From the NCBI GenBank assembly GCA_963838925.1, contig CAWISW010000001.1, positions 320,001 through 384,000 on the forward strand: a DNA stretch of 64,000 nucleotides. The letters are read 5' to 3'. The notes under the pieces were generated by a model. It was given only the letters and a program-made list of their open reading frames with translations, was not told where the DNA came from and made no database searches. This document shows, in pieces, positions 2,114 to 59,410 of the stretch. The DNA is from an uncultured Nitrososphaerota archaeon. Lineage in GTDB: Archaea; Thermoproteota; Nitrososphaeria; Nitrososphaerales; Gagatemarchaeaceae. Every line of letters begins with the position of its first letter. Position 1 is the stretch's first letter. The position numbers and the translations under genes are program-made.

Positions 2114-2752
2114 TTGCCCGCCGCCCCGACCTGCAACATAGGAATCCTCGTCTCCGGCAGGGGGAGCAACATGCTCGCCATCATCCGCGCCATAGAGCGC
2201 GGAGGGATCAAGGGCGCGAGGGTGGCCGTCGTGATAAGCGACAAGCGCGACGCGAGGGCACTGAAGTCGGCGCTGAGCCACGGGATCGAAGCCGTCTGGC
2301 TCGACCCGGCCGAGGCGGCCAGCAGGCTAGACTACGACATGAGGCTCCTCGACGTCCTCAGAGACAAGGGAGTGACCACGAAAGGCGGTCTCGTCGCGCT
2401 CGCCGGTTTCATGAGGCTGCTCTCGCCCGAGTTCGTCGACGCGTTCAAGGGCAGGATCATCAACATCCACCCCGCCCTGCTCCCGTCGTTCCCAGGGCTG
2501 AGGGCGCAGGAGCAGGCGCTCGAGTACGGGGTCAAGGTCTCGGGGTGCACCGTGCACTTCGTTGTCCCCGAGGTCGACTCGGGCCCGATAATCCTCCAGG
2601 GCGCGGTGAAGGTGGAGGAGGGGGACTCCCCAGAGTCCCTTTCAGCGAGGATCCTTAGGCAGGAGCACAGGCTCTACCCGCTCGCGGTCAAGCTGTTCGT
2701 CGAAGGAAGGCTAAAAATCGAGGGCCGCAGAGTGGTGATAGCAAGGAAATGA
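2114..2752 (+). CDS. purN: Phosphoribosylglycinamide formyltransferase
   Basis: ILVSGRGSN, LAGFMRLL, INIHPALLPSFPG, GCTVHFV..EVDSGPII; TTG start. Confidence 0.96.
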   Translation: MPAAPTCNIGILVSGRGSNMLAIIRAIERGGIKGARVAVVISDKRDARALKSALSHGIEAVWLDPAEAASRLDYDMRLLDVLRDKGVTTKGGLVALAGFMRLLSPEFVDAFKGRIINIHPALLPSFPGLRAQEQALEYGVKVSGCTVHFVVPEVDSGPIILQGAVKVEEGDSPESLSARILRQEHRLYPLAVKLFVEGRLKIEGRRVVIARK

Positions 2753-3627
2753 CCGCCACCATAATGGACGGCAGGGCACTGGCGGCGGAGATCAAGTCCC
2801 GCCTCGCCCAAGAGGCGGCGATGATGAAGGGCGCGGGGGCCGTCCCGAAGCTGGCGACCATCCTCGTGGGCGACGACGCGCCCTCCAAGGTCTACCTTGG
2901 GGGCAAGCACCGCGCGGCGCAAGAGGTCGGCATAGGCCTCGAGACCTACCACCTCCCGGGGACCTCGCCTCCCCAGGACCTCTCCCTCCTGATACGCAGG
3001 CTCAACTCAGACAAGTCGGTGAACGGGATCCTCCTCCAGCTTCCGCTGCCCGGGCACCTGGAGCCGAGGGAGATGATTGAGCAGATCTCGCCAGCGAAGG
3101 ACGTCGACGGCCTCACGGCCGCCAACATGGGCCGGCTCTTCTACAACCAAGGCATCCTCGTGCCGTGCACGCCCAAGGGGATAATGGAGCTGCTCCACCA
3201 CTACAACGTCCCGCTCACGGGGTCGAGGTGCGTGATCATCAACAGGAGCGCCCTGGTCGGGAGGCCGCTCATGCACCTCCTCCTCGCCGAGGACGCGACC
3301 GTCACCGTGTGCCACTCAAAGTCCGTCGACTTCATCTCGATCACGAGGCAGGCGGACGTCGTGGTCACAGCCGTCGGCAGGCGGCCCGGCTTCACCCTGA
3401 CGAGGGAGATGGTGAAGGAAGGCGCGGTCGTGGTCGACGTCGCGATGAACAGGGTCCACGGGAAGCTCACCGGGGACGCCGAGTTCGAGGAGGTGTCGCA
3501 GAAGGCCTCCATGATAACCCCCGTCCCGGGAGGCGTGGGGCCGATGACCATCGCCATGCTGATGGAGAACACCCTCATCGCCACCGCGCTTCAGAACGGC
3601 CTGAAGGACGCGGGGGTGCTGAAGTGA
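2749..3627 (+). CDS. folD: Methylenetetrahydrofolate dehydrogenase/cyclohydrolase
   Basis: GILLQLPLP, KDVDG, PCTPKG, TVTVCHS, ITPVPGGVGPMT. Confidence 0.97.
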   Translation: MTATIMDGRALAAEIKSRLAQEAAMMKGAGAVPKLATILVGDDAPSKVYLGGKHRAAQEVGIGLETYHLPGTSPPQDLSLLIRRLNSDKSVNGILLQLPLPGHLEPREMIEQISPAKDVDGLTAANMGRLFYNQGILVPCTPKGIMELLHHYNVPLTGSRCVIINRSALVGRPLMHLLLAEDATVTVCHSKSVDFISITRQADVVVTAVGRRPGFTLTREMVKEGAVVVDVAMNRVHGKLTGDAEFEEVSQKASMITPVPGGVGPMTIAMLMENTLIATALQNGLKDAGVLK

Positions 3628-27065: not shown

Positions 27066-28013
27066 CTAGATTCCGAGCGCCGAGCGCAGGCCCTTGTACC
27101 TGTTCCTGATGGTAACCTCGGTGACGCCCGCAGCCTCTGCGACGTCCCGTTGGGTCTTGTCCTCACCTTCGAGGGTGCAGGACACGTAGAGCGCGGCCGC
27201 CGCGAGGCCCATCGGGTCCTTCCCGGCCGAGATCCGCGCCTCCTCCGCCTTCTTGAGTATCTCTAGAGCCCGCCTCTTGGTCCTCTCCGAGAGCTGCGCC
27301 CTCGACGCGATCCTCGAGACGCACTTCGTGGGGTCGACCACGGGCATCTTGATGTCCATCTCCTTCAGGAGCAGCCTGTAGCACCTGGCGATGTCCTTCT
27401 TCTTCACGTTGGAGACGTTCGCGAGGTCCTTGAGCGTCCTCGGGGTCTCCCTGTCCCTGCAGGCCGCGTACAGGGAGGCGGCGATTATCGCGGAGATGGA
27501 CCTTCCCCTCACCAGCCCCCTCTCCAGAGCCTTCCTGTAGATGTAAGCAGCCTTCTCGACAACGGCGTCGGAGACGGAGAGCTTGTCAGAGAGCCTGTCC
27601 AGCTCGCTGAAGGCCTGCCTGAGGTTCCTGTCCTGGGGCTCGTGGACCTGGCTCCTGCTGTCCCACGTCCTCAGCCTCTCCACCGTCGCCTTCATCGATC
27701 CCGAGAGAGACTTGCCGGAGGCGTCCTTGTTGACGGCTCCTATGACCGTGGCCAGGCCCATGTCGTGCATGGCTATCGAGGTCGGGATGCCGCCCCTCGA
27801 CCTGTCGTCCTTCTCCTCCTTGGAGAACGCCCTCCATTCGGGGCCCGTCTCCTCTATCTTTTCCTTTACCACGAACCCGCAGCTGCTGCAAACCAGCTCT
27901 CCCCCGGCGTTGTCCACGACCATGGGACCCTTCCCGCACCTGGGGCACTTGTCCAGCGCCTTCTGCAACCTCATCAGCCTCGAGAAATCTCTTTCAGATG
28001 ACAAGCAATACAC
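27066..28013 (-). CDS. tfb: Transcription initiation factor IIB (start may be ATG 27974)
   Basis: CPRCG...GELVCSSCG zinc ribbon, GPEWRAF, two cyclin repeats, GKDPMGLAAAALY, VTEVTIRNRY. Confidence 0.97.
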   Translation of the reverse strand: MYCLSSERDFSRLMRLQKALDKCPRCGKGPMVVDNAGGELVCSSCGFVVKEKIEETGPEWRAFSKEEKDDRSRGGIPTSIAMHDMGLATVIGAVNKDASGKSLSGSMKATVERLRTWDSRSQVHEPQDRNLRQAFSELDRLSDKLSVSDAVVEKAAYIYRKALERGLVRGRSISAIIAASLYAACRDRETPRTLKDLANVSNVKKKDIARCYRLLLKEMDIKMPVVDPTKCVSRIASRAQLSERTKRRALEILKKAEEARISAGKDPMGLAAAALYVSCTLEGEDKTQRDVAEAAGVTEVTIRNRYKGLRSALGI

Positions 28014-28136: not shown

Positions 28137-29458
28137 GGTTCTGTTAACTCTTCAGCTCAGGCAGTGGGCGAGTCAACTTGCTGGCATCGACTCGGAGGAT
28201 TAGGGTCTTCCTCGTCCCGTTCCCCGTCACTGCTTCACCTGCCAGCCCTTTCTCCTCCTCTATCGTGTGCGAGCGACTTTCCTCCTCTCGCCTCTCCGAC
28301 CGAGGAGAAAGGGAACGGTCGAACCTGGACCGCCCCCTCTCGGATAGGTTCAGGGCCGCGTTCACGTCCCTGTAAATCCACTCCTTGCACTTCTGGCACC
28401 AGAGCATCCTCGCGTGCGCGACATCACCCCTTGCAGGATTGTGGAGCTTCTCCCCACACGCCGAGCACGTCGAGGATGACCCGTAGGTCTCAGACTTTGT
28501 CAGCAGAACCACAGTCAGGCCCTTCCATGCTGCCTTGTATTCGAGCATCTTCTTCGCCTTCCGGTGGGGCCACGAGTTGAGCCTGAACCTGTAGCCTGCA
28601 CCTTGCCCGTTCCCTCTTTGGTACAACCTCCTGATGTCGGTCAGGTCCTCGATAGCAAGCGCAGCCCCTTGCCTCGCCGCGTCATCGACGATATAGTTCG
28701 TGGCCGCGTGGAGGATCTGGTCGCTCCTGTGACGGGCCCTACTCCAGTACTTGCGGGCGAGATTCCTTCGTATCCTGACGTCGTTCCTCTTGAACGATCC
28801 GACTATCTCCCTGGTCGTCTGCCTCATCTTGACCAACTTCGTCATCTCGACCAAGGTGACGTTTTCTTTATCACCGAACGTGATGTTCTTCTCGTTCCTG
28901 TCCAAGCCATAGACTCTTCTTATCTCAACAGGTTCGATGTGCTTCGAATAGCAGAGCGATAGCGAGTCGGGAGTTATGGTGAGGCTCCTGACCTTCCCCT
29001 CTGAGAGCTTCCTGACCGCATATTGATTGAGCTTTATGTCGAAATACTTGTCACGTCTCAGCGGGATGAAGAGCCTCCCCTTCATTGTGATGAAGAAACC
29101 CGAGATGATACATGAAACCGGTCTCAAAGGCCTGGGATGGGCTGCTTTGATTCCTCGCTTCTCGCCTTTGTTGCGACTTTGGACGACTGCGCAGGCGCGC
29201 GTTATCGACGCGACCTTGTAACAAGAAGGAAACTCGGTGTTCCTGAGCGTCCGGTAGAATCCCTTCATCCCCTTGCGGTTCTCAATCCCATGTGCTTCGG
29301 CGTAGTTGACTGCGTCATAGGTCGCTGTTAGACATTCGTTAAGCAGACCACGTAGCTGCTCGCTGGAATGCGATTGGGTGACACACTTTGTTGCCCGCAA
29401 CAATCATCTGGGATGCAATCGTATAAACGCGCCCATGAGCCGAAGAGTTACCAGAGCC
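28137..29458 (-). mobile_element. Non-autonomous tnpB-only element with 23-bp TIRs and 8-bp TSD (copy 1)
   Basis: TIRs 28137-28159 and 29436-29458 (20/23 complementary); direct repeat CCAGTGCA at 28129-28136 and 29459-29466; no transposase inside. Confidence 0.9.
28144..29403 (-). CDS. tnpB: TnpB-family RNA-guided endonuclease
   Basis: RuvC-I VYGLDRN, RuvC-II LAIEDL, zinc ribbon SSTCSACG/WCQKC, RuvC-III RDVNAALNL; stop lies inside TIR. Confidence 0.88.
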   Translation of the reverse strand: MLRATKCVTQSHSSEQLRGLLNECLTATYDAVNYAEAHGIENRKGMKGFYRTLRNTEFPSCYKVASITRACAVVQSRNKGEKRGIKAAHPRPLRPVSCIISGFFITMKGRLFIPLRRDKYFDIKLNQYAVRKLSEGKVRSLTITPDSLSLCYSKHIEPVEIRRVYGLDRNEKNITFGDKENVTLVEMTKLVKMRQTTREIVGSFKRNDVRIRRNLARKYWSRARHRSDQILHAATNYIVDDAARQGAALAIEDLTDIRRLYQRGNGQGAGYRFRLNSWPHRKAKKMLEYKAAWKGLTVVLLTKSETYGSSSTCSACGEKLHNPARGDVAHARMLWCQKCKEWIYRDVNAALNLSERGRSRFDRSLSPRSERREEESRSHTIEEEKGLAGEAVTGNGTRKTLILRVDASKLTRPLPELKS

Positions 29459-29530
29459 CCAGTGCATCAAGCTTTTATATCGAGCCCGGCACTTTGTCGC
29501 CAGGTCGCGCTCGTGGGCTCAGAGTTGGTC

Positions 29531-39559: not shown

Positions 39560-40895
39560 CGGTGGACCGCCCTCGGCTTCATCCGTGAGGTAGGGCGAAT
39601 GGGCGCTTAAATCGAATTTGCAGTTTTGGGTTTCGGCCCAATTGAAGTCAGCTCTCCGGTTTCGTCTCTATCCGAACAGAAAGCAGGAGTGGAGGCTGAT
39701 AAGGATGGTCGAGGCCGGGCGGCGACTGTGGAACATTGCTCTCTGCCACAGGAGACTGCGATGGGAGCAGAAGCGACTCTCCACCTCTTACAGCCAACAG
39801 TGCTTGATTCTTACTGCAGAGAGGCGCTTAGACCCGTTCTTGAAAGAGCTGTACTCACAAGCGGGTCAAGAGATACTCAAGCGCCTCGACAGGGCATTCC
39901 AGTCGTACTTCGACGGACGGGCAGGATATCCGAAGTTCAAAAAGTTCTCCGAATCGGGGTCGTTCACGTATCCTCAGGCTTACAAAGGATCTGTAAAGCC
40001 AGACATAGTGCGGAGGAGGCTCTTCCTCTCAAAGGTGGGAAATGTCAAGGTGGTTTTCCACAGAGAACTGCCTTCCGGGAGCGCGAGGTTGAAGACCTGC
40101 ACCATTGTTAGGGAACCGAATGGCGAATGGTACGCGTCTCTGGTCTACGAGGTATACAGGGAATGGCCTCAACCGTGTAAGGCGTTTACATCGCCGGTTG
40201 GAGTGGATTTAGGACTGAAATCAGTCATAACCACAACCGATGGAATCAAGATTGCACACCCTCAGTTCCTCAGGAAATCAGAGAGGCGGCTGAAGCATCT
40301 GAATCGAGCGCTTTCCAAAACGCTGAAAGCTTCGAGGAATAGAGAAAGAGCTCGCATAAAACTTGCGATCTGCTCGTCGACCGTCACGAGACAACGGACA
40401 GATTTCAATCAAAAACTGAGCCCATCACTGGTGCGGAAGCACGATTTGATTGCCTTTGAGGACCTGAAGGTCAGGAATATGGTCAGGAACCGCGTTGTTG
40501 CGAAGTCCATTATAGATGCCGGATGGCATCAGATTCGAATCCTTACAGAATACAAGGCAACATGGGCAGGGAAGCTCGTTGTGGGGGTGCCGGCAGCCTA
40601 CTCGAGCCAGGAATGCTTCTTTTGCGGCACGCTAAACCAGGTTCCTCTAAGCGTCCGCGTCTTTGACTGCCGAGGTTGCGGCCGGACGTTGGACCGCGAC
40701 CTAAACGCGGCGTGGATAGTGCTGAAGCGAGGATTCGCTCAGGTAGGGCAGGACATGCCCGAACTCAAGCCTGGGGAGACAGGACCTCTACCCGTCCCGG
40801 CAACGGGACGCGCAAGCCCCGTCGGTGAAGCAGGAACTACACGCGGCGAGCATCGAGCCGCTGGAATCCCAAAACCTCAGGTGGGAAGGATGTCA
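39560..40895 (+). mobile_element. IS200/IS605-family tnpB-only (IS1341-like) element; left boundary approximate
   Basis: Left subterminal hairpin CGCCCTCGGCTTCATCCGTGAGGTAGGGCG; right end GGAATCCC...GGGAAGGATGTCA; lower GC than flanks; no TIR/TSD seen. Confidence 0.75.
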
Positions 40896-41309
40896 CTTTT
40901 TCGACTCGCGCACGTAGTCTTCGAAGATCGCCTTGACCTTGTCGGCGGCGAGGCCGGAGCCCTCGGTCACCCCCTTGTCGGTGACCTTGATCTTCTCCAT
41001 CACGATTATGGCCCCTATGTCCTCCCTCACCGAGACCAGCCCGGGGAACACCCTGTTGAGCCTCTCGCCCAGGGCCTTGAAGTCGAACGGCCTGTCCGTC
41101 AGCCTGATCTCGCGGACGTTGTCGCCGTTCATGGCGACCTTGAAGACGTTGGGCCCCGCCCCGACCACCTTGTCGAGGACGATGTTGAGCCTCTCGTCCG
41201 CCCCCACGAGCTGGCCGTTGTACTCCTTCCCATCGGCCGTAACAACCACGACGTGCCTGCCAAGGAAGGCGTTCAACTCCTCCCCGAACTTTCGAAACAC
41301 AACCGATGA
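39642..41309 (+). CDS. tnpB: Canonical IS605-type TnpB; frame runs past the element end antisense through the Sm gene (meaningful part ends by ~40895)
   Basis: RFRLYPN HTH, GYPKFK, VGVDLGLK, IAFEDL, SSQECFFCG...CRGCG..DRDLNAA. Confidence 0.9.
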   Translation: MKSALRFRLYPNRKQEWRLIRMVEAGRRLWNIALCHRRLRWEQKRLSTSYSQQCLILTAERRLDPFLKELYSQAGQEILKRLDRAFQSYFDGRAGYPKFKKFSESGSFTYPQAYKGSVKPDIVRRRLFLSKVGNVKVVFHRELPSGSARLKTCTIVREPNGEWYASLVYEVYREWPQPCKAFTSPVGVDLGLKSVITTTDGIKIAHPQFLRKSERRLKHLNRALSKTLKASRNRERARIKLAICSSTVTRQRTDFNQKLSPSLVRKHDLIAFEDLKVRNMVRNRVVAKSIIDAGWHQIRILTEYKATWAGKLVVGVPAAYSSQECFFCGTLNQVPLSVRVFDCRGCGRTLDRDLNAAWIVLKRGFAQVGQDMPELKPGETGPLPVPATGRASPVGEAGTTRGEHRAAGIPKPQVGRMSLFRLAHVVFEDRLDLVGGEAGALGHPLVGDLDLLHHDYGPYVLPHRDQPGEHPVEPLAQGLEVERPVRQPDLADVVAVHGDLEDVGPRPDHLVEDDVEPLVRPHELAVVLLPIGRNNHDVPAKEGVQLLPELSKHNR

Positions 41310-41312
41310 CAT
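40893..41312 (-). CDS. Sm-like RNA-binding protein with C-terminal domain (SmAP3 type)
   Basis: Sm fold V.T.DGKEY.G.LVG.D..LNIVL, then FDFKALGERLNRVFPG; ATG 41312. Confidence 0.88.
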   Translation of the reverse strand: MSSVVFRKFGEELNAFLGRHVVVVTADGKEYNGQLVGADERLNIVLDKVVGAGPNVFKVAMNGDNVREIRLTDRPFDFKALGERLNRVFPGLVSVREDIGAIIVMEKIKVTDKGVTEGSGLAADKVKAIFEDYVRESKK

Positions 41313-41421
41313 CCGATTCGATTCCTGAACCTCCCGAGAGGGTATATAGGAATTATTTCGGCCGGCGCTGGTAACTCCTCGGCGCATAGGCGCATATATT
41401 TGAATAACGCGAAAATGATTA

Positions 41422-42696
41422 TTGCGAGCGACAAGGTCCGTCACCCAGTCCCATTCCAGCCAGCAGCTTGCAAGCTTGCTCTCAGAGTGTCTGACGATGA
41501 CTTGCAACGCCATTCACTACGCCCAAGAACACAAGATCAAGAGCCGCAGAGGAATGAAAGGGTTCTACAGGACGCTCAAGGACGTCGAGCTGCCTTTGTG
41601 CTACAAGGTCGGGTCGATATCGCGGGCTTGCGCCGTCGTCAACAGTCGCGAAAAGAGCGAGAGGCGAGGAGTCGCGGTCGGCCACCCCAAACCTCTTCGC
41701 CCGGCCGTTTGCATCACCTCGGGGTTCTTCATCACGATGAAGGGGAGGCTCTTCATCCCGTTGAGGCGTGACAGGTATTTCGACGTCCAGCTCAATCAGT
41801 ACATAATGGACTGGCTCGCCGACAAGAAAGTGAGGAGCCTCACCATTGCTTCCGACTCGCTCTCACTCTGCTACTCGGAGGACATCCGTCCAGCCCCTGT
41901 CAGGAGGGTCTACGGCGTCGACAGGAACGAGAAGAACGTCGCCTTCGGGGACAGAGAGAAGGTCATCCTGGTCGAGATGAAGAAGATTGTCAGGGTCAGG
42001 CAGACGACGAGGGAGATAGTCGCCTCGTTCAAGAGGAACGACGTCAGGATGCGAAGGAAGCTCTTCCGCAAGTACTGGAGGAGGGCGAACCACAGGGGCG
42101 ACCAGATCCTCCACGCGGCCGCGAACTACGTCATCGACGTGGCGGCGAAAGACGGGGCCGCGCTAGCCATCGAGGACCTAAGGGGCATCAGGAAGCTGTA
42201 CCGCAGGGGGAGCGGTCAGGGACCTGACTATAGGTTCAGGCTCAACTCATGGCCGCACTGGAAGGCCAAGAAGATGCTCGAGTACAAGGCCGCTTGGAAG
42301 GGAGTGACGACGATTGCGCTCACGAGGTCTGACACCTATGGATCCTCGTCGACGTGCTCGGCGTGCGGGGAGAGGCTCCGCAGTCCTGCGAAGGATGATG
42401 TCGCGCACCGGAGGATGCTGTGGTGTCAGGCCTGCAGTAGGTGGATAGACAGGGATGTGAACGCGCCCCTGAACCTGTCCATGAGGGGGCGGTCGAGGTT
42501 TGACCGTTCCCTTCCTTCCCGGTCGGAGCGCAATGAGGAGGAGGAAAGGCGCTCGCAACAAGCAACTCCCTCTTCCATCCCGACCGTGAAGGAGGAAGGG
42601 CTGGCAGGTGAAGCGGTGACGGGGAACGGGACGACTACCCTAATCCTCCGAGTCGATGCCAGCAAGTTGACTCGACGGCGTGAGCCGAAGAGTTAA
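41422..42696 (+). CDS. tnpB: TnpB-family RNA-guided endonuclease, paralog of 28144-29403
   Basis: VYGVDRN, LAIEDL, SSTCSACG/WCQAC, DRDVNA; colinear with copy 1 over full length. Confidence 0.88.
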   Translation: MRATRSVTQSHSSQQLASLLSECLTMTCNAIHYAQEHKIKSRRGMKGFYRTLKDVELPLCYKVGSISRACAVVNSREKSERRGVAVGHPKPLRPAVCITSGFFITMKGRLFIPLRRDRYFDVQLNQYIMDWLADKKVRSLTIASDSLSLCYSEDIRPAPVRRVYGVDRNEKNVAFGDREKVILVEMKKIVRVRQTTREIVASFKRNDVRMRRKLFRKYWRRANHRGDQILHAAANYVIDVAAKDGAALAIEDLRGIRKLYRRGSGQGPDYRFRLNSWPHWKAKKMLEYKAAWKGVTTIALTRSDTYGSSSTCSACGERLRSPAKDDVAHRRMLWCQACSRWIDRDVNAPLNLSMRGRSRFDRSLPSRSERNEEEERRSQQATPSSIPTVKEEGLAGEAVTGNGTTTLILRVDASKLTRRREPKS

Positions 42697-42703
42697 CAGA
42701 ACC
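42598..42703 (+). ncRNA. Putative omegaRNA scaffold overlapping tnpB 3' end (equivalent in copy 1 at ~28137-28248, minus strand); 5' end unknown
   Basis: Near-identical between copies; stem CGAGTCGA/TTGACTCG with loop TGCCAGC complementary to upstream GCTGGCA (pseudoknot). Confidence 0.6.
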
Positions 42704-42733
42704 TTTCGGCCCGAAGTGCGAGAGCGGCGAAAG

Positions 42734-44626
42734 GTGGCGCGCTTCCTCGCAAACGTCAATAACGGCCCGTCGTCGGAGGCCCTCGTGAGCGCAAGAAGGC
42801 GCTACCTCGCGTTGCGCTTCGTGGTCACCTTCCTCGCCGCCCTCTCGCTCGTGGACCTCCTCTCGATGCTCGCCGTAGTCGGCTTCCACGCCTACTCGCC
42901 TTCGGCGGTCGCGACGGGGGTCCTGGCGCCCATGACGTTCATCCTGGCGGGAGCGTCGTCGGCCGCGCTGGCCCTTTCGCTCGTCTACGCCCTCCTCGCC
43001 TACCCGGCCTACCGCAACACCACGCTCCTCCTGGCTCTCATCGTGCTTGGGCTCCTCGGGGCCCACCTCTACACCATCAACACGCCCCCGCTGGGCACCA
43101 CGGCCTCGCTGAGCGCGCCGATCGGGCACCCGGCCAACGACAACCTCGTCACCCTGTCTTCGAGCCTCACCGGGACGACCCTCCGCGCCACTGTCGCCGT
43201 CTCGGACGTCTCGGGCAGCGACGCGGTCGGCTCGCTGTCCATCGCCGTGGGGAACACCGTGCTGCCCACCTCGGGATGGACGTTCGCCCCGACCACGGTC
43301 ACCGCCTTGCAGCCTGGGTCGATCGACTCGGGCAACTGGTCCCTGCAGTCCGCCCCCTCAGGGCCCGTCACCCTCACCTACGAGGACCTGAAGTGCTACG
43401 CCACCGACAAGCAGGTCGACGGCTGCATAATGGACGAGGTCTACTACGTCCCCGCCGCGCAGACCCTGCTGGCCGGCGAGAAGTGCGCCCCCTACGCGGA
43501 CAACTGCAACCTGGAGCACCCCTTCCTATCCAAGGCCTTCATCGCTGCGGGGATAGCAATCTTCGGGAACGGGACATTCGGCTGGAGGATCTTCGAGGTG
43601 CTGCTGGGCACGTTCAGCGTCCCGGTCCTCTTCGGCATCTGCTGGTCGGTGACCCGCAACCAGAGGCTCTCCCTCTACGCCTCCTTCCTCCTCGCCTTCG
43701 AGACGCTCTTCTTCGCCCACTCCAGCATGGCGGTGATAGACGTCTCCGCCATCTTCTTCGGGCTCCTCGGCTTCCTGTTCTACTTCGCCAAGGTTCGCTG
43801 GTGGAAGTTCGATTCCATCGCCCTCACGGCCATCGCGTTCGGCCTCTCGGCACTCTGTAAGGAGACCGCGATCATGCTCCTCTTCGTCCTCCTCGCCTAC
43901 CACCTCCTCTTCGGAGACGGGAGCAGGACGCGCCGGGTCCTCTCGTCCGTCGAGCTCGTCCTGTCCGTCTTCCTGGTCTTCGCCGTGGGCCTCCAGATCT
44001 ACGACAGCCTCTTCGGGGCGGGTTCGGCGACCACGTTCCTGGGGCAGGTGGAGTTCATCCTGAAGTACGGGGCCTCGCTCACGATGACCCCGACCAGCCA
44101 GGGCTGGATCGACACGGTCCTGAAGACCCCCATCACGCCATGGAACTGGATAACATACTACTCCCCGGTCGGATACCTGATCACCAACGTGAAGGTCACC
44201 ACGGGGACGTCGTCCTACTCGTACGTCTCGGCCGGCTACTACGGCATCACCGACCAGTTCGAGGTCTGGATGGTCTACCTCTGGGGTGCCTACGCCGTCT
44301 ACCTCTGGTGGAAGACCAGGGGGACGCAGTTCGCCACCGAGTCGGACGCGAAGGACTTCAAGGTTGTGCGCCTCGCGCTCGTCTGGTTCCTCGTCATCTT
44401 CCTCGCGTACCTCGCCCTCTTCTACTACGGGCGCATCACGTACCCATACTACTTCATCCAAGCCGTCCCGGCGCTCGCCGTGGGCGCCGCCTACTTCCTT
44501 ACGAGGGGCTGGTTCCCGAAGCAGATAGCCTACATCGTCCTCGCCGGAGTCCTCCTCTGGTTCTTCATCTTCTACCCCGACAAGAGCTTCCTCCCGACGC
44601 AGCTCAGGGTCTGGCTGGGGCACTGA
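42734..44626 (+). CDS. GT-C (GT39/PMT-like) membrane glycosyltransferase with extra extracellular beta domain
   Basis: MDEVYYVPAA, NLEHPFLSK.FIA.GI, FGWR, many TMs; GTG start inferred. Confidence 0.85.
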   Translation: MARFLANVNNGPSSEALVSARRRYLALRFVVTFLAALSLVDLLSMLAVVGFHAYSPSAVATGVLAPMTFILAGASSAALALSLVYALLAYPAYRNTTLLLALIVLGLLGAHLYTINTPPLGTTASLSAPIGHPANDNLVTLSSSLTGTTLRATVAVSDVSGSDAVGSLSIAVGNTVLPTSGWTFAPTTVTALQPGSIDSGNWSLQSAPSGPVTLTYEDLKCYATDKQVDGCIMDEVYYVPAAQTLLAGEKCAPYADNCNLEHPFLSKAFIAAGIAIFGNGTFGWRIFEVLLGTFSVPVLFGICWSVTRNQRLSLYASFLLAFETLFFAHSSMAVIDVSAIFFGLLGFLFYFAKVRWWKFDSIALTAIAFGLSALCKETAIMLLFVLLAYHLLFGDGSRTRRVLSSVELVLSVFLVFAVGLQIYDSLFGAGSATTFLGQVEFILKYGASLTMTPTSQGWIDTVLKTPITPWNWITYYSPVGYLITNVKVTTGTSSYSYVSAGYYGITDQFEVWMVYLWGAYAVYLWWKTRGTQFATESDAKDFKVVRLALVWFLVIFLAYLALFYYGRITYPYYFIQAVPALAVGAAYFLTRGWFPKQIAYIVLAGVLLWFFIFYPDKSFLPTQLRVWLGH

Positions 44627-44644: not shown

Positions 44645-46192
44645 GTGAACGCGCTAGAGCGACACCCGGCGCTGCGCTTCGTCGTCGCCTTCCTCGCAGC
44701 GGTCTCGTTCGTGGACCTCTTCGCGATGCTCGTCATCGTGGGACTGCACGCCTACTTCCCGGCCGGCGTGGCGACGGGCGAGCTCTCCCCCATGACCTTC
44801 GTCCTCGCGGGAGCCTCAGGGTCAGCGCTCGTCCTCTCGCTGGCCTACGCCCTCCTCGCCTACCCTTCCCGTCGCAGGACCCTCCTCCTCCTGTCCCTCC
44901 TCGTCTTGGGGCTCCTCGGCGCGCACCTCTACACCATCAACACGCCGGACACGGCGAACTGCAATGACACCGCAAAGAACGTCCAGGGCTGCGTCATGGA
45001 CGAGGTCTACTACGTCCCCGCCGCCCAGACCATGCTCAGCGGCGAGAAGTGCGCCCCCTTCCAGGTGAACTGCAACCTCGAGCACCCGTTCCTCTCCAAG
45101 GCCTTCATCGCTGCGGGGATAGCGGTCTTCGGGAACGGGACCTTCGGCTGGAGGATCTTCAACGTCATCCTCGGCACCTTCAGCATCCCCGTGCTCTTCG
45201 GGCTGTGCTGGACCGTGACCAAGAACGAGCGCCTCTCGCTTTACGCGGCCTTCCTCCTCGCCTTCGAGACCCTCTTCTTCGTCCACTCGAGCATCGCCGT
45301 CATCGATGTCGGGGCGATATTCTTCAGCCTGCTGGGATTCCTCTTCTACTTCGCAAAGGCGCGCTTATGGAAGCTCAGCCACGTCTCGCTCGCCGGGATC
45401 GCCTTCGGGGTGGCGGTCCTCTGCAAGGAGACGGCGGCTCTCCTGTTCATCATGCTGATCTACTACCACCTCTTCTACGCTGAGGGCAACCGCGGCGCGG
45501 TGGCGCGTTCGACGGCCGTGCTCTGCGCGTGGACCTTCCTCGTATTCGCTGTGGGCATGCAGATCTACGACGGCGCCTTCGGCGCCGGGACGGCGACCAC
45601 CTTCATAGGCCAGACCTACTTCATCTTGGGGTACGGGGCCTCTTTCGTGATGACCCCGACGAACCGAGGGTGGCTCGACTCGGTCTTCAACACCCCCATA
45701 ACGCCACTGAACTGGGTGACCTACTACTCGCCAGTGGTATACCTCGTCACCACCGTCAAGGTGACCGCGGCCTCTGGGAACTATTCCTACGCCTCCGCCG
45801 GATACTACGGAGTCACCAGCCAGATTGAGGTCTGGCTGGTCTACCTTTGGGGCGCCTACACCGTCTACCTCTGGTGGAAGACCAAGGGCAAGACGTTCGC
45901 CTTGGAGTCCGAAGCGCGCGAGTTTCGCCTCGGGCGCCTGGCGCTGGTCTGGTTCCTCGTCGTGTTTCTAGGCTACGTCGCCCTCTACTTCTACGGGAGA
46001 GTGACCTATCCCTACTACCTCATCGAGGCCGCCCCCGCGCTGGCGATGGGCGCCGCGTACTTGCTCACCCGGGGCTGGTTCCCGCGGCCGGTGGCCTATC
46101 TCCTCCTCGCGGGGGTCTTCATCTGGTTCTTCGTCTTCTACCCTGACAAGAGCTTCCTCCCGACGCAGCTCAGGGTCTGGCTGGGCCACTGA
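44645..46192 (+). CDS. GT-C (GT39/PMT-like) membrane glycosyltransferase, tandem paralog
   Basis: Same DE and EHP motifs; colinear with upstream gene; identical C-terminus YPDKSFLPTQLRVWLGH. Confidence 0.87.
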   Translation: MNALERHPALRFVVAFLAAVSFVDLFAMLVIVGLHAYFPAGVATGELSPMTFVLAGASGSALVLSLAYALLAYPSRRRTLLLLSLLVLGLLGAHLYTINTPDTANCNDTAKNVQGCVMDEVYYVPAAQTMLSGEKCAPFQVNCNLEHPFLSKAFIAAGIAVFGNGTFGWRIFNVILGTFSIPVLFGLCWTVTKNERLSLYAAFLLAFETLFFVHSSIAVIDVGAIFFSLLGFLFYFAKARLWKLSHVSLAGIAFGVAVLCKETAALLFIMLIYYHLFYAEGNRGAVARSTAVLCAWTFLVFAVGMQIYDGAFGAGTATTFIGQTYFILGYGASFVMTPTNRGWLDSVFNTPITPLNWVTYYSPVVYLVTTVKVTAASGNYSYASAGYYGVTSQIEVWLVYLWGAYTVYLWWKTKGKTFALESEAREFRLGRLALVWFLVVFLGYVALYFYGRVTYPYYLIEAAPALAMGAAYLLTRGWFPRPVAYLLLAGVFIWFFVFYPDKSFLPTQLRVWLGH

Positions 46193-57442: not shown

Positions 57443-57618
57443 GTCAGTCCACGTTTACGGTAATCACTTAGATAAACGTTTGCCGAACGATGAGACGAAG
57501 CAGTCATCTCGAGTAGCAAGGGGCCGTCGTTCGTTCGTCCTAGTTGATTTGCGGGACGGTGATGGCTTCGACTTCAGGATTGCGAAGCGATGGGAGGGAT
57601 CGCGCCGACCCCTGAATG

Positions 57619-57726
57619 CTACTTGGCTTTGGTCGGGACCGACTCTGGAGTCGGCTTCTCTTCGAACGATATGGCGAGCTTCAAGTTGACGTTCTCCTTC
57701 GAGACAGCGATGACTTTCTCTACCAC
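57619..57726 (-). CDS. Possible 35-aa protein (MVEKVIAVSKENVNLKLAISFEEKPTPESVPTKAK)
   Basis: Hand-translated; host-like codon usage; AGGTGGAG upstream and TTAAAT box ~40 nt upstream. Confidence 0.35.
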   Translation of the reverse strand: MVEKVIAVSKENVNLKLAISFEEKPTPESVPTKAK

Positions 57727-59179: not shown

Positions 59180-59410
59180 CTAGTTAGGCCCCCCAGAACC
59201 GCCAGGGTCTCCGCCCGATATCATGTGGAGGTTAGGCCCGCCAGACCCTCCCGGATCCCCACTGGTGATCACGTGAAGGTTTGGTCCCCCAGACCCTCCG
59301 GGATCTCCGTTGAAGATTCCGTGCACTCCATGCGCCATGAGGGCGAACGCGACGAACGTCACGGCGAACGGAGCGACCTTGATCAGCTTGCTCAGAAGTC
59401 GACTATTCAT
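59180..59410 (-). CDS. Small exported peptide precursor 2 with three GDPGGSGGPN cores
   Basis: Basic N-region plus hydrophobic helix, then 3 x 16-aa unit; stop 4 nt from stop of convergent regulator. Confidence 0.85.
   Translation of the reverse strand: MNSRLLSKLIKVAPFAVTFVAFALMAHGVHGIFNGDPGGSGGPNLHVITSGDPGGSGGPNLHMISGGDPGGSGGPN
59183..59326 (-). repeat. Three 48-nt tandem coding repeats (xHxIxxGDPGGSGGPN)
   Basis: Core codons differ only synonymously between the three units. Confidence 0.9.

Follow-up and report, generated by a model that had tools for sequence, protein, structure and literature searches.

How does a tnpB gene travel when it lies between terminal inverted repeats and is flanked by a duplication of its target site? 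This question is raised by a stretch of 64,000 nucleotides (nt), called here the window, from an uncultured Nitrososphaerota archaeon (assembly GCA_963838925.1, contig CAWISW010000001.1, positions 320,001 to 384,000). Cas12 descends from TnpB, itself a compact genome-editing nuclease. To our knowledge, its natural role is understood only for the IS200/IS605 and IS607 insertion sequences (IS), which excise scarlessly. At positions 41364-42703 of the window, a 1340-bp unit, hereafter copy 2, contains a single long open reading frame (ORF), which is tnpB, between terminal inverted repeats (TIRs) and within a perfect 8-bp target-site duplication (TSD). A TIR-tnpB-TIR unit of this family has inserted at least three separate times in the source genome. 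Taken as a whole, the account that we consider likely is that of a non-autonomous insertion sequence of the IS6 type, having as sole cargo tnpB with its omega-RNA scaffold, moved by a transposase acting in trans, and encoding a TnpB that acts on the empty site.

Insertions of the TIR-tnpB-TIR unit

An original prediction, drawn from the sequence before any search, had delimited copy 2 by its TIRs and by a perfect octamer duplication, and these boundaries are confirmed base for base. The 22-bp TIRs agree at 17/22 positions (18/23 when taken one base longer), and the octamer TTTCGGCC is found at 41356-41363 and at 42704-42711. The tnpB stop codon was said to fall inside the right TIR; it is indeed the TAA within GTTAAC, 7 nt short of the end of the element. 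No transposase ORF is present in copy 2, according to the ORF list and to Pfam. The features of the two copies of the window are the following.

41353..41355, plus strand: TTA, candidate position of a target-adjacent motif (TAM), directly 5′ of the left duplication, as read in the sequence
41356..41363, no strand: left duplication TTTCGGCC; the empty site in genome G406 has one octamer, TTTCATCC
41364..41385, plus strand: left TIR GGCGCTGGTAACTCCTCGGCGC; homology to copy 1 begins at its first base
41393..41407, plus strand: TATA-like box CATATATTTGAATAA, candidate promoter, about 27 nt 5′ of the TTG start
41422..42696, plus strand: tnpB ORF, 424 amino acids, with the TTG start common to all three copies; PF07282, E 1.7e-13
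42480..42703, plus strand: candidate omega-RNA scaffold, overlapping the 3′ end of tnpB and extending through the right TIR; 5′ limit approximate
42655..42697, plus strand: terminal hairpin GTTGACTC...GAGTTAAC predicted by RNAfold; its 3′ strand is TIR positions 7-14, and AGAACC is left unpaired
42682..42703, minus strand: right TIR, minus-strand sequence GGTTCTGTTAACTCTTCGGCTC, holding the tnpB stop; metagenome contigs diverge just after 42703
42704..42711, no strand: right duplication TTTCGGCC, predicted to form the first 8 nt of the guide
28137..29458, minus strand: copy 1, 1322 bp, same build as copy 2; tnpB at 28144-29403, 419 amino acids
28129..28136, no strand: copy 1 duplication, CCAGTGCA on the plus strand, adjoining the right TIR; empty site in G406
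29459..29466, no strand: second octamer of the copy 1 duplication, adjoining the left TIR

Copy 1 is the diverged, colinear paralogue in the opposite orientation that the same prediction had pointed out. Its right TIR is identical to that of copy 2 at 22/23 positions, its stop codon is placed in the same way, and it has a perfect duplication of its own, TGCACTGG. Alignment of the two copies, which had been proposed as a check, extends from the outermost base of one TIR to that of the other, with flanks that are unalike and no homology beyond. A third copy, 82% identical to copy 2 and bordered by its own perfect octamer TAAGAAGG, is carried by contig 2. The source genome (1.84 Mb in 3 contigs, 87% complete) thereby contains 3 full-length copies, at 100, 82 and 77% identity to copy 2. 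When a degenerate TIR pattern (at most 3 mismatches) was run over the whole genome, it returned 6 sites, against 1 in a reversed control, and all 6 are ends of the three copies.

The sites of insertion can be seen unoccupied in G406, a genome of the same genus (88% complete). There, the flanks of all three copies are matched at 73-85% identity and the elements are absent. A single octamer is joined to both flanks, namely CTCGTGCA for copy 1, TTTCATCC for copy 2 and TAAGGAAG for copy 3, each identical to the corresponding duplication at 6/8 positions. A second genome of the genus, G412, also has the copy 1 locus without the element and possesses copies of its own elsewhere, two of which (L117 and L122) show perfect 8-bp duplications. 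Because the boundaries are identical, the three perfect octamers different and the three sites empty in G406, the moving unit is the whole TIR-tnpB-TIR segment, as had been anticipated.

Soil metagenome contigs were also considered. Contigs of two runs (4 in run X1, 2 in X2) follow the window to 42703 and continue with unlike sequence. As the divergence comes right after 42703, the right boundary is used in further contexts, and these contigs are read as other insertions of related right ends. The summed contig depth over the last ~100 nt of copy 2 is about 10 times that of the rest of the element. No joint skipping copy 2, that is, no empty-site allele, was found in the contigs of four sequencing runs. 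The listed runs that contain this DNA include no RNA run. A scan of the metagenome with a 30-nt left-end pattern gave one locus, L102, a fourth member of the family with a 7/8 duplication.

The three TnpB proteins are 72-78% identical and their ORFs are intact. The ratios of nonsynonymous to synonymous substitution rates (dN/dS), estimated by the Nei-Gojobori method (NG86), are 0.30, 0.24 and 0.31 for the three pairs of copies, with dS values of 0.42-0.69. With ratios that are not near 1, the copies represent diverged lineages under purifying selection, so that the earlier idea of an established family under selection holds. Since all the duplications are perfect despite the divergence of the copies, the lineages must have split long before the insertions took place. 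It would follow that the separate insertions were made by members of an established family that had diverged beforehand.

One may ask whether these are rather immobile, domesticated tnpB genes, for instance RNA-guided regulators, duplicated by ordinary recombination. The mutual age of the copies, measured by dS, would suit such genes, as would the lack of a recognisable left TIR in three other tnpB genes of the source genome (T4-T6, described below). However, homology that ends exactly at the TIR tips, a separate perfect duplication for each copy, sites that are empty in G406 and intact catalytic residues make this explanation most improbable.

Distribution of the family

The tnpB TIR family is widespread in the Nitrososphaerales, the order to which the ammonia oxidisers of soil and sea belong. 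A homologue at E <= 1e-30 is present in 54 of the 401 genomes of the class that were sampled, the source genome included; a protein search of a collection of species-representative genomes returned two loci. A strict scan (TIR >= 15/20, duplication >= 7/8) of 31 loci from other genomes recovered the architecture in 4 of them (L025, L038, L045, L046). Manual inspection adds L017, L020 and L021, in which the left tips show slight decay, and L018 is truncated at a contig end. The same architecture is displayed by copies from the same genus and family (L117, L120, L122). Two further cases, L036 and L047, come from genomes flagged as unpublished, and no conclusion rests on them. The amoA gene (PF12942) is present in 3/5 related genomes, these being the 3 that were tested from two other families; neither the source genome nor a complete genome of its own family yielded it, the 14 control genomes of the source-genome search being equally negative.

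The richest case is G152, a complete genome of 2.2 Mb with more than 30 copies and derivatives of the tnpB family. It contains 96 TIR sites, against 4 in the control. Twenty long pairs were picked from the site listings, together with all 11 pairs 0.14-0.66 kb apart, 34 sites lying outside this sample. All 20 long pairs, on opposite strands and 1.27-1.37 kb apart, enclose a frame of tnpB size (373-421 amino acids), and L069, the one member of the 20 that was scanned with Pfam, matches PF07282.

Three more tnpB genes of the same clade occur in the source genome: T4 to T6, at C1:60485-61510 (minus strand), C1:189686-190681 (plus strand) and C2:545833-546804 (plus strand). Their products are 27-38% identical to that of copy 2. 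A 3′ RNA-like module is kept in them, and their ends (..AGAACC or ..AGAGCC) resemble the right TIR tip; neither a left TIR nor a duplication was found for them. They may be decayed copies, or represent a state that preceded capture by IS6-type ends.

IS6-type ends and a candidate transposase

Members of the IS6 family have GG tips, a cTGTt motif, short TIRs and 8-bp target repeats (PMC7986276). The tips of the tnpB elements read GGTTCTGTT, the TIRs starting with GGTTCTGTT/GGCGCTGGT. The right TIR combines GG tips with CTGTT (GGTTCTGTTAAC...), and the left TIR has CTGGT. These tips are common to the tnpB elements and to the IS6-type elements of the source genome, of G152 and of a further genome, G235. 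Copy 2 is, in our opinion, very probably a non-autonomous element of the IS6 type. As it carries no transposase, it counts as a non-autonomous relative of IS6 only and falls outside the family in the strict sense. The simplest mechanism would be that an IS6-family transposase mobilises it in trans.

Candidates for such a transposase are at hand. The IS6-type DDE domain, PF13610, is encoded at 4 places in the source genome. On contig 2, L002 is an autonomous IS6-type element of 1983 bp that has TIRs of 49 bp and is flanked by the perfect duplication CTTTTTCG. Its transposase of 383 amino acids scores 61.9 bits with PF13610, and 124.8 bits with NF033587, 'IS6 family transposase', for a cut-off of 125; its TIR, GGTTCTGTTCAATCAACGGCTC, matches the right TIR of the tnpB element at 18/22 positions. 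Two larger IS6-type elements of the same genome (2384 and 2774 bp) have the perfect duplications AGCATAAC and TTACAAAC. The link with IS6 that had been suggested at the outset thus fits the tips, the length of the duplication and the presence, in the same genome, of IS6-family elements that make 8-bp duplications. Among 24 IS6 transposase loci taken with 1.5-kb flanks, TIRs with a TSD were seen only in L002 and L066; the left end of most such elements is further upstream, and L003 and L004 were resolved from the whole genome only. Related archaeal IS6-type transposases have 373-404 amino acids and an N-terminal zinc finger/SWIM region, and PF13610 was the top-scoring Pfam DDE family in 6/6 transposases scanned. 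In G152, the transposase-bearing elements whose TIRs are closest to those of the tnpB elements (GGTTCTGTTAACTTG...) share their first 13 bases with the right TIR of the window and carry PF13610 transposases.

It may be imagined that the ends derive from another DDE family making 8-bp duplications, such as an IS1595-like one, or that they are served by an IS6-like transposase outside this assembly, the L002 type then not being the mobiliser. In this sense, the match with the L002 TIR is inexact, the genome is 87% complete, and the N-terminal zinc-binding domain of the L002 transposase also matches IS1/IS1595 models, with an IS6 score 0.2 bits below the cut-off. Against it stand the PF13610 transposases of the G152 elements with the closest TIRs and the rank of PF13610 as best DDE family in all 6 proteins. 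We regard an origin of this kind as quite improbable.

A more familiar possibility would be an ordinary tnpB-only element of the IS200/IS605 family (IS1341 group), moved by a Y1 TnpA, with end repeats that are due to chance or are subterminal hairpins. TnpB is typical of IS200/IS605, and a survey of thaumarchaea files tnpB-type elements under that family (PMC6563490). Yet IS200/IS605 elements have neither TIRs nor duplications (PMC13565253), whereas three perfect 8-bp duplications and three empty sites are observed here. In addition, the Y1 transposase domain PF01797 had 0 matches in the 87%-complete source genome, 6/14 control genomes being positive. Hardly any weight can be given to this reading.

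Several IS6-type elements of the clade have a composition worth recording. Often, the transposase is located at one end, with 0.8-3 kb of cargo upstream. In L002, about 800 bp beyond the transposase (2518-3336) contain a membrane-like ORF of 139 amino acids without Pfam match and an ORF of ~46 amino acids. The 3.1-kb IS6-type element L088 (G152:C1:699962-703092) associates a transposase of 387 amino acids with genes for an N6/N4 DNA methylase and for an HNH endonuclease. At the other extreme, a 705-bp IS6 element is present on G235:C1 in six nearly identical copies (L103-L108), of which 2 have 8-bp duplications, 2 have 7-bp duplications, and 2 share a left flank and an altered tip.

TnpB protein and candidate omega RNA

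With Pfam, the TnpB proteins of copies 2 and 1 match the Cas12f1-like TNB domain PF07282 only (E 1.7e-13 and 8.9e-15), and their scores with NF038281 and NF038280 are far below the cut-offs of these models. By its sequence, the window TnpB appears as a divergent member of the TnpB family. The three copies were aligned with two G152 relatives, 30% identical to copy 2, the range of identity in the alignment being 30-78%. In these five proteins, D167 (GxDRN), E251 (E-D/N-L), D345 (RD) and the zinc-ribbon cysteines C312/C315/C335/C338 are invariant. We take D167, E251 and D345 to be the RuvC-like triad, from general knowledge of TnpB motifs. The DRDxNA stretch aligns to solved TnpB-like chains, including 9j09_A.

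The 3′ part of the gene has features of its own. The last ~130 nt are 89-93% identical between copies, versus 74-81% upstream, and over the final ~60 codons dS is 0.19-0.36, compared with 0.47-0.77 before them. The four window-type 3′ ends fold to a common consensus structure, and a scaffold core (..TAATCC..AGTCGATGCC.GCAAGT..) can be recognised in all subfamilies. A long stem covaries, with CTGGCA/TGCCAG in the window type, GAGGCA/TGCCTC in L120 and L008, CTTGCA/TGCAAG in L025 and TGACAT/ATGTCA in G152. RNAalifold applied to 18 sequences gave compensatory double changes in 6/6 pairs of this stem, the G152 rows being partly misaligned there.

After the core, 11/15 subfamily representatives form a terminal hairpin in RNAfold predictions. 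Its 3′ strand corresponds to TIR positions 7-14, so that six bases (AGAACC) are left unpaired before the flank. The 5′ strand tracks the sequence of the TIR: the pair is GTTGACTC/GAGTTAAC in the window, GTCGGGT/ACCCGAC in L085 and GTCGAGTC/GACTTGAC in L025. In copy 3 and L102, single changes retain wobble pairs, and L018 is a further case, read by eye. These predictions suggest that the right TIR forms part of a covarying 3′ hairpin in a putative guide-RNA scaffold. Rfam has no family for window positions 40500-43000, apart from a chance miRNA match (E = 1). Elsewhere, at 57554-57676 (minus strand), the window gives a loose match to the regular expression of the RNA core (..AATCCTGAAGTCGAAG..), where tblastn finds no tnpB homologue.

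Short TIR pairs of G152 bear on the same module. Ten of the 11 arose from tnpB elements by internal deletion. Both TIRs are retained in them, along with the RNA module in the form of the final ~90-390 nt of the tnpB element (260-390 nt in 9 cases). In L097 (139 bp), the remaining one, the TIRs are of a type seen in an autonomous IS6 element, and homology of this sort is absent.

A TAM-like motif beside the left duplication

In a tnpB element with a variable octamer, a TAM-like motif must lie outside the duplication, and the octamer would start the guide. The flanks were compared in 30 G152 elements (20 with tnpB and 10 miniatures) having distinct flanks and oriented by tnpB or by the RNA module; L097, which offers no orientation, was left out. 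TTR (R, purine) stands directly 5′ of the left octamer in 21/30 elements and in 14/17 of those with a perfect duplication, for a background of 4.6% in the flanks (binomial p 7e-22). More precisely, T is found at position -10 from the left end in 28/30 and a purine at -9 in 29/30. The mirrored motif follows the right octamer in 5/30 only. As the left and right TIRs of the G152 elements are nearly identical (1 mismatch in 24), this asymmetry points to something inside the element. If an RNA is read out of the right end, its guide is the octamer followed by the right flank. At an unoccupied site, these three bases come immediately before the octamer and right flank, on the strand where a TAM for TnpB has to be.

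Proposed mechanism

Considering these properties, the following course of events may be envisaged. In a first step, an IS6-family DDE transposase supplied in trans would bind the TIRs and insert the element through an 8-bp staggered cut. In a second step, tnpB would be transcribed from the TATA-like box just inside the left TIR. Copies 1 and 3 have TTTATA at the corresponding position, and a candidate promoter so placed would suit a leaderless archaeal tnpB mRNA. The omega RNA would be cut from the 3′ part of this transcript, its scaffold ending in the hairpin to which the right TIR contributes its inner half, followed by six unpaired bases (AGAACC), and its guide, read out of the element, consisting of the duplicated octamer and the right flank. 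The third step is the least certain. The TnpB-omega complex would cut only the unoccupied copy of the same site, where a T-rich TAM-like motif (TTA here, TTR in relatives) is directly 5′ of octamer and flank. The occupied site would be spared, as the left junction matches the guide over 8 nt only and the right junction presents AACC instead of the motif. Repair from the occupied copy would then spread or retain the element, so that the logic of IS605 would apply to a DDE transposon that makes TSDs.

Targeting of the empty site by TnpB in this way seems to us quite possible, though short of probable. With slightly more reserve, we put forward as a tentative proposal that a TnpB/omega-RNA module has been fitted to a probably replicative IS6-type transposon, with a right TIR in a dual role, a guide made of octamer and flank, a TTR-type TAM outside the left duplication, and recognition of the unoccupied allele alone. 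The absence of matching duplications in 13/30 G152 elements would fit replicative or recombinational reshuffling.

A series of observations weighs against one or another part of this account. The nearest NCBIfam model for the proteins of the two window copies, NF040570 (guided_TnpB), gives 69 and 75 bits, below its cut-off of 100. Concerning the transposase, a PF13610 search of the genome contigs found none on the contig of the window; 18/22 is the best TIR match to an autonomous element in the source genome, where an exact match was not found; and a transposase and tnpB within one TIR pair did not occur in the two multi-gene IS6-type elements of G152 that were checked, L088 and L101, the latter having a second integrase-type gene as cargo. 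The covarying hairpin could be, instead of RNA, a subterminal DNA repeat belonging to a transposase-binding site; to judge from the sequences, RNA would be the better fit. IS6 elements are held to transpose replicatively and are not known to excise (PMC7986276), and it has been argued that homing by TnpB pays only for elements that excise (PMC13565253). The motif itself is less regular outside G152. In the window clade, TTR is found in 3/10 only (TTA in copy 2, TTG in L102, TTA in L117), TTT in 3/10 (copy 3, L020, L021), and the other four have TGA (copy 1, with TTG one base further out), CCA, CAA and CTC; other subfamilies have CTA, ACA and ATC at this position. Finally, ten autonomous IS6 elements without tnpB were inspected: 3 from the source genome, 3 from G152 and 4 of the 6 copies of the 705-bp G235 element, two copies being dropped for their common left flank and altered tip, and some flanks being reverse-complemented by eye. 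TTG precedes the duplication in 3/10 at the transposase-upstream end and in 0/10 at the other end. The motif could therefore be, in part at least, a target preference of the transposase, which the TAM of TnpB may have come to match, by analogy with IS605.

These last data lead to the most serious alternative, in which the element is of the IS6 type but TnpB and its RNA take no part in the spread. TTR would then be an asymmetric preference of the transposase, and tnpB either a mere cargo or a gene serving defence or regulation. The TTG at one end of autonomous elements speaks for this reading, as does the lack of known excision in IS6 (PMC7986276), and a common motif cannot discriminate, since the target of the IS200/IS605 transposase is also the TAM (PMC13565253). 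Conversely, a preference of the transposase sits poorly with G152 elements, where almost identical TIRs are accompanied by the motif on the tnpB-upstream side so much more often than on the mirrored one. When both ends of the autonomous elements are pooled, 3/20 is near chance (p about 0.06, estimated with the 4.6% background). Furthermore, short derivatives retain the RNA module and not other inner parts, and purifying selection acts on tnpB, whose product has its catalytic triad intact. A passive tnpB therefore appears unlikely to us, without being negligible, and an active TnpB/omega-RNA module remains the explanation that we prefer.

Neighbouring features of the window

Directly upstream of copy 2, the ORF 39618-41309 (plus strand) encodes another TnpB, of canonical type (PF01385 OrfB_IS605, PF07282, PF12323), with no BLAST-level relation to the TIR family; the ORF probably overruns the real end of the protein. 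Within it, a piece of ~108 nt (40743-40850) reaches 5-10x the surrounding depth in metagenome contigs and is loose-ended on both sides. It may be a conserved right end, or the RNA, of the canonical TnpB element.

Directly after copy 2 come two tandem paralogous genes of PMT_2-type glycosyltransferases (42716-44626 and 44645-46192, plus strand), visible as direct repeats of 74-82% (D1-D3). The idea that copy 2 had separated a leaderless gene from its promoter was dropped, the adjacent paralogue suggesting that the glycosyltransferase starts ~120 codons downstream. Copy 1 is adjoined by a TFIIB gene (27066-28013, minus strand); several TFIIB paralogues, cross-matching at 66-77%, are present in the source genome and its relatives. 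At 59183-59326, three tandem 48-nt repeats, 67-73% alike (D7), are probably within a coding region.

Comparison with known systems and significance

TnpB proteins associated with DDE transposons have been described. Altae-Tran et al. (2023, PNAS) distinguished DDE-associated branches, DDE-1 to DDE-6, and solo TnpB genes with the same ends (PMC10691335). The DDE families named in connection with TnpB are IS630 in the part of that article covered here (PMC10691335), and ISL2, IS630 and IS1031 in a 2026 review (PMC13565253), which calls such links rare in prokaryotes. Copy 2 resembles the DDE-TnpB systems of Altae-Tran et al. in that TnpB is enclosed within inverted terminal repeats, the TIR tips are shared with transposase-bearing relatives, and the 3′ end of tnpB is less than 250 bp from the end of the transposon (PMC10691335). 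It differs from these accounts by its IS6-type ends, IS6 being named in the covered parts of neither text (PMC10691335, PMC13565253); the supplementary branch tables of the former, not covered here, may list an IS6-linked branch. A full-text search found no literature linking TnpB with IS6 ends, the tables of the PNAS supplement being outside its scope. The part of Altae-Tran et al. covered here has nothing on a TAM beside a variable 8-bp duplication, on a TIR within an RNA hairpin or on miniatures reduced to the RNA (PMC10691335).

With IS6/IS26 elements, copy 2 shares 8-bp duplications, short TIRs and, in the right TIR, GG tips with the CTGTT motif, and the related autonomous elements carry a PF13610/NF033587-type transposase (PMC7986276). 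It departs from them in having tnpB and no transposase, and the 'caaa' motif of the family logo is missing from its TIRs (PMC7986276). The part of the IS6 review covered here reports one passenger-carrying member and two miniature inverted-repeat transposable elements, and no tnpB (PMC7986276).

As in the IS1341 group of IS200/IS605, the candidate omega-RNA scaffold overlaps the 3′ end of tnpB, the guide would begin immediately beyond the right end, and the role of TAM would fall to a motif lying 5′ of the left end. As in IS1341-group elements and miniatures, non-autonomous copies would depend on a transposase in trans. In contrast, the IS200/IS605 family has no TIRs or duplications and is moved by a Y1 HUH transposase acting on single-stranded DNA (PMC13565253), whereas copy 2 has both TIRs and 8-bp duplications, and the duplicated octamer lies between its left end and the TAM-like motif. 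The annotation of such tnpB TIR elements under IS200/IS605 obscures their mode of movement.

What the family would mean can be stated in a few points. Here, tnpB is the sole cargo of a DDE-type family with TIRs and TSDs that has been mobile many times, and an IS6-end tnpB element suggests how RNA-guided nucleases may hitch-hike on other transposons. If the account is true, RNA-guided homing would be extended to a class of transposons held not to excise, and the miniatures, reduced to TIRs and the RNA module, would be parasites twice over, relying in trans on a transposase as well as on TnpB. Predictions open to testing follow from the family: the TAM should adjoin a duplication of variable sequence, the guide should start with that duplication, and a TIR should be contained in the RNA scaffold. 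The 30 insertion sites of G152 also constitute a natural data set with which to ask whether RNA-guided nucleases help non-excising transposons.

The closest parallel in another domain would be Fanzor1 in eukaryotic DDE transposons, where a TnpB-type nuclease likewise resides in a TIR- and TSD-making DDE transposon and the relation of TSD to TAM matters (PMC13565253). There, the TAM is said to include the 5′ TSD, and the scaffold the 3′ TSD (PMC13565253); here, the host is an archaeon, and the octamer would belong to the guide. Thus, the association of TnpB with DDE transposons is known, and what is new is the spread of such a family in the Nitrososphaerales, the participation of a TIR in a putative RNA hairpin, the miniatures that keep only the candidate RNA module, and a TAM-like motif placed outside the duplication.

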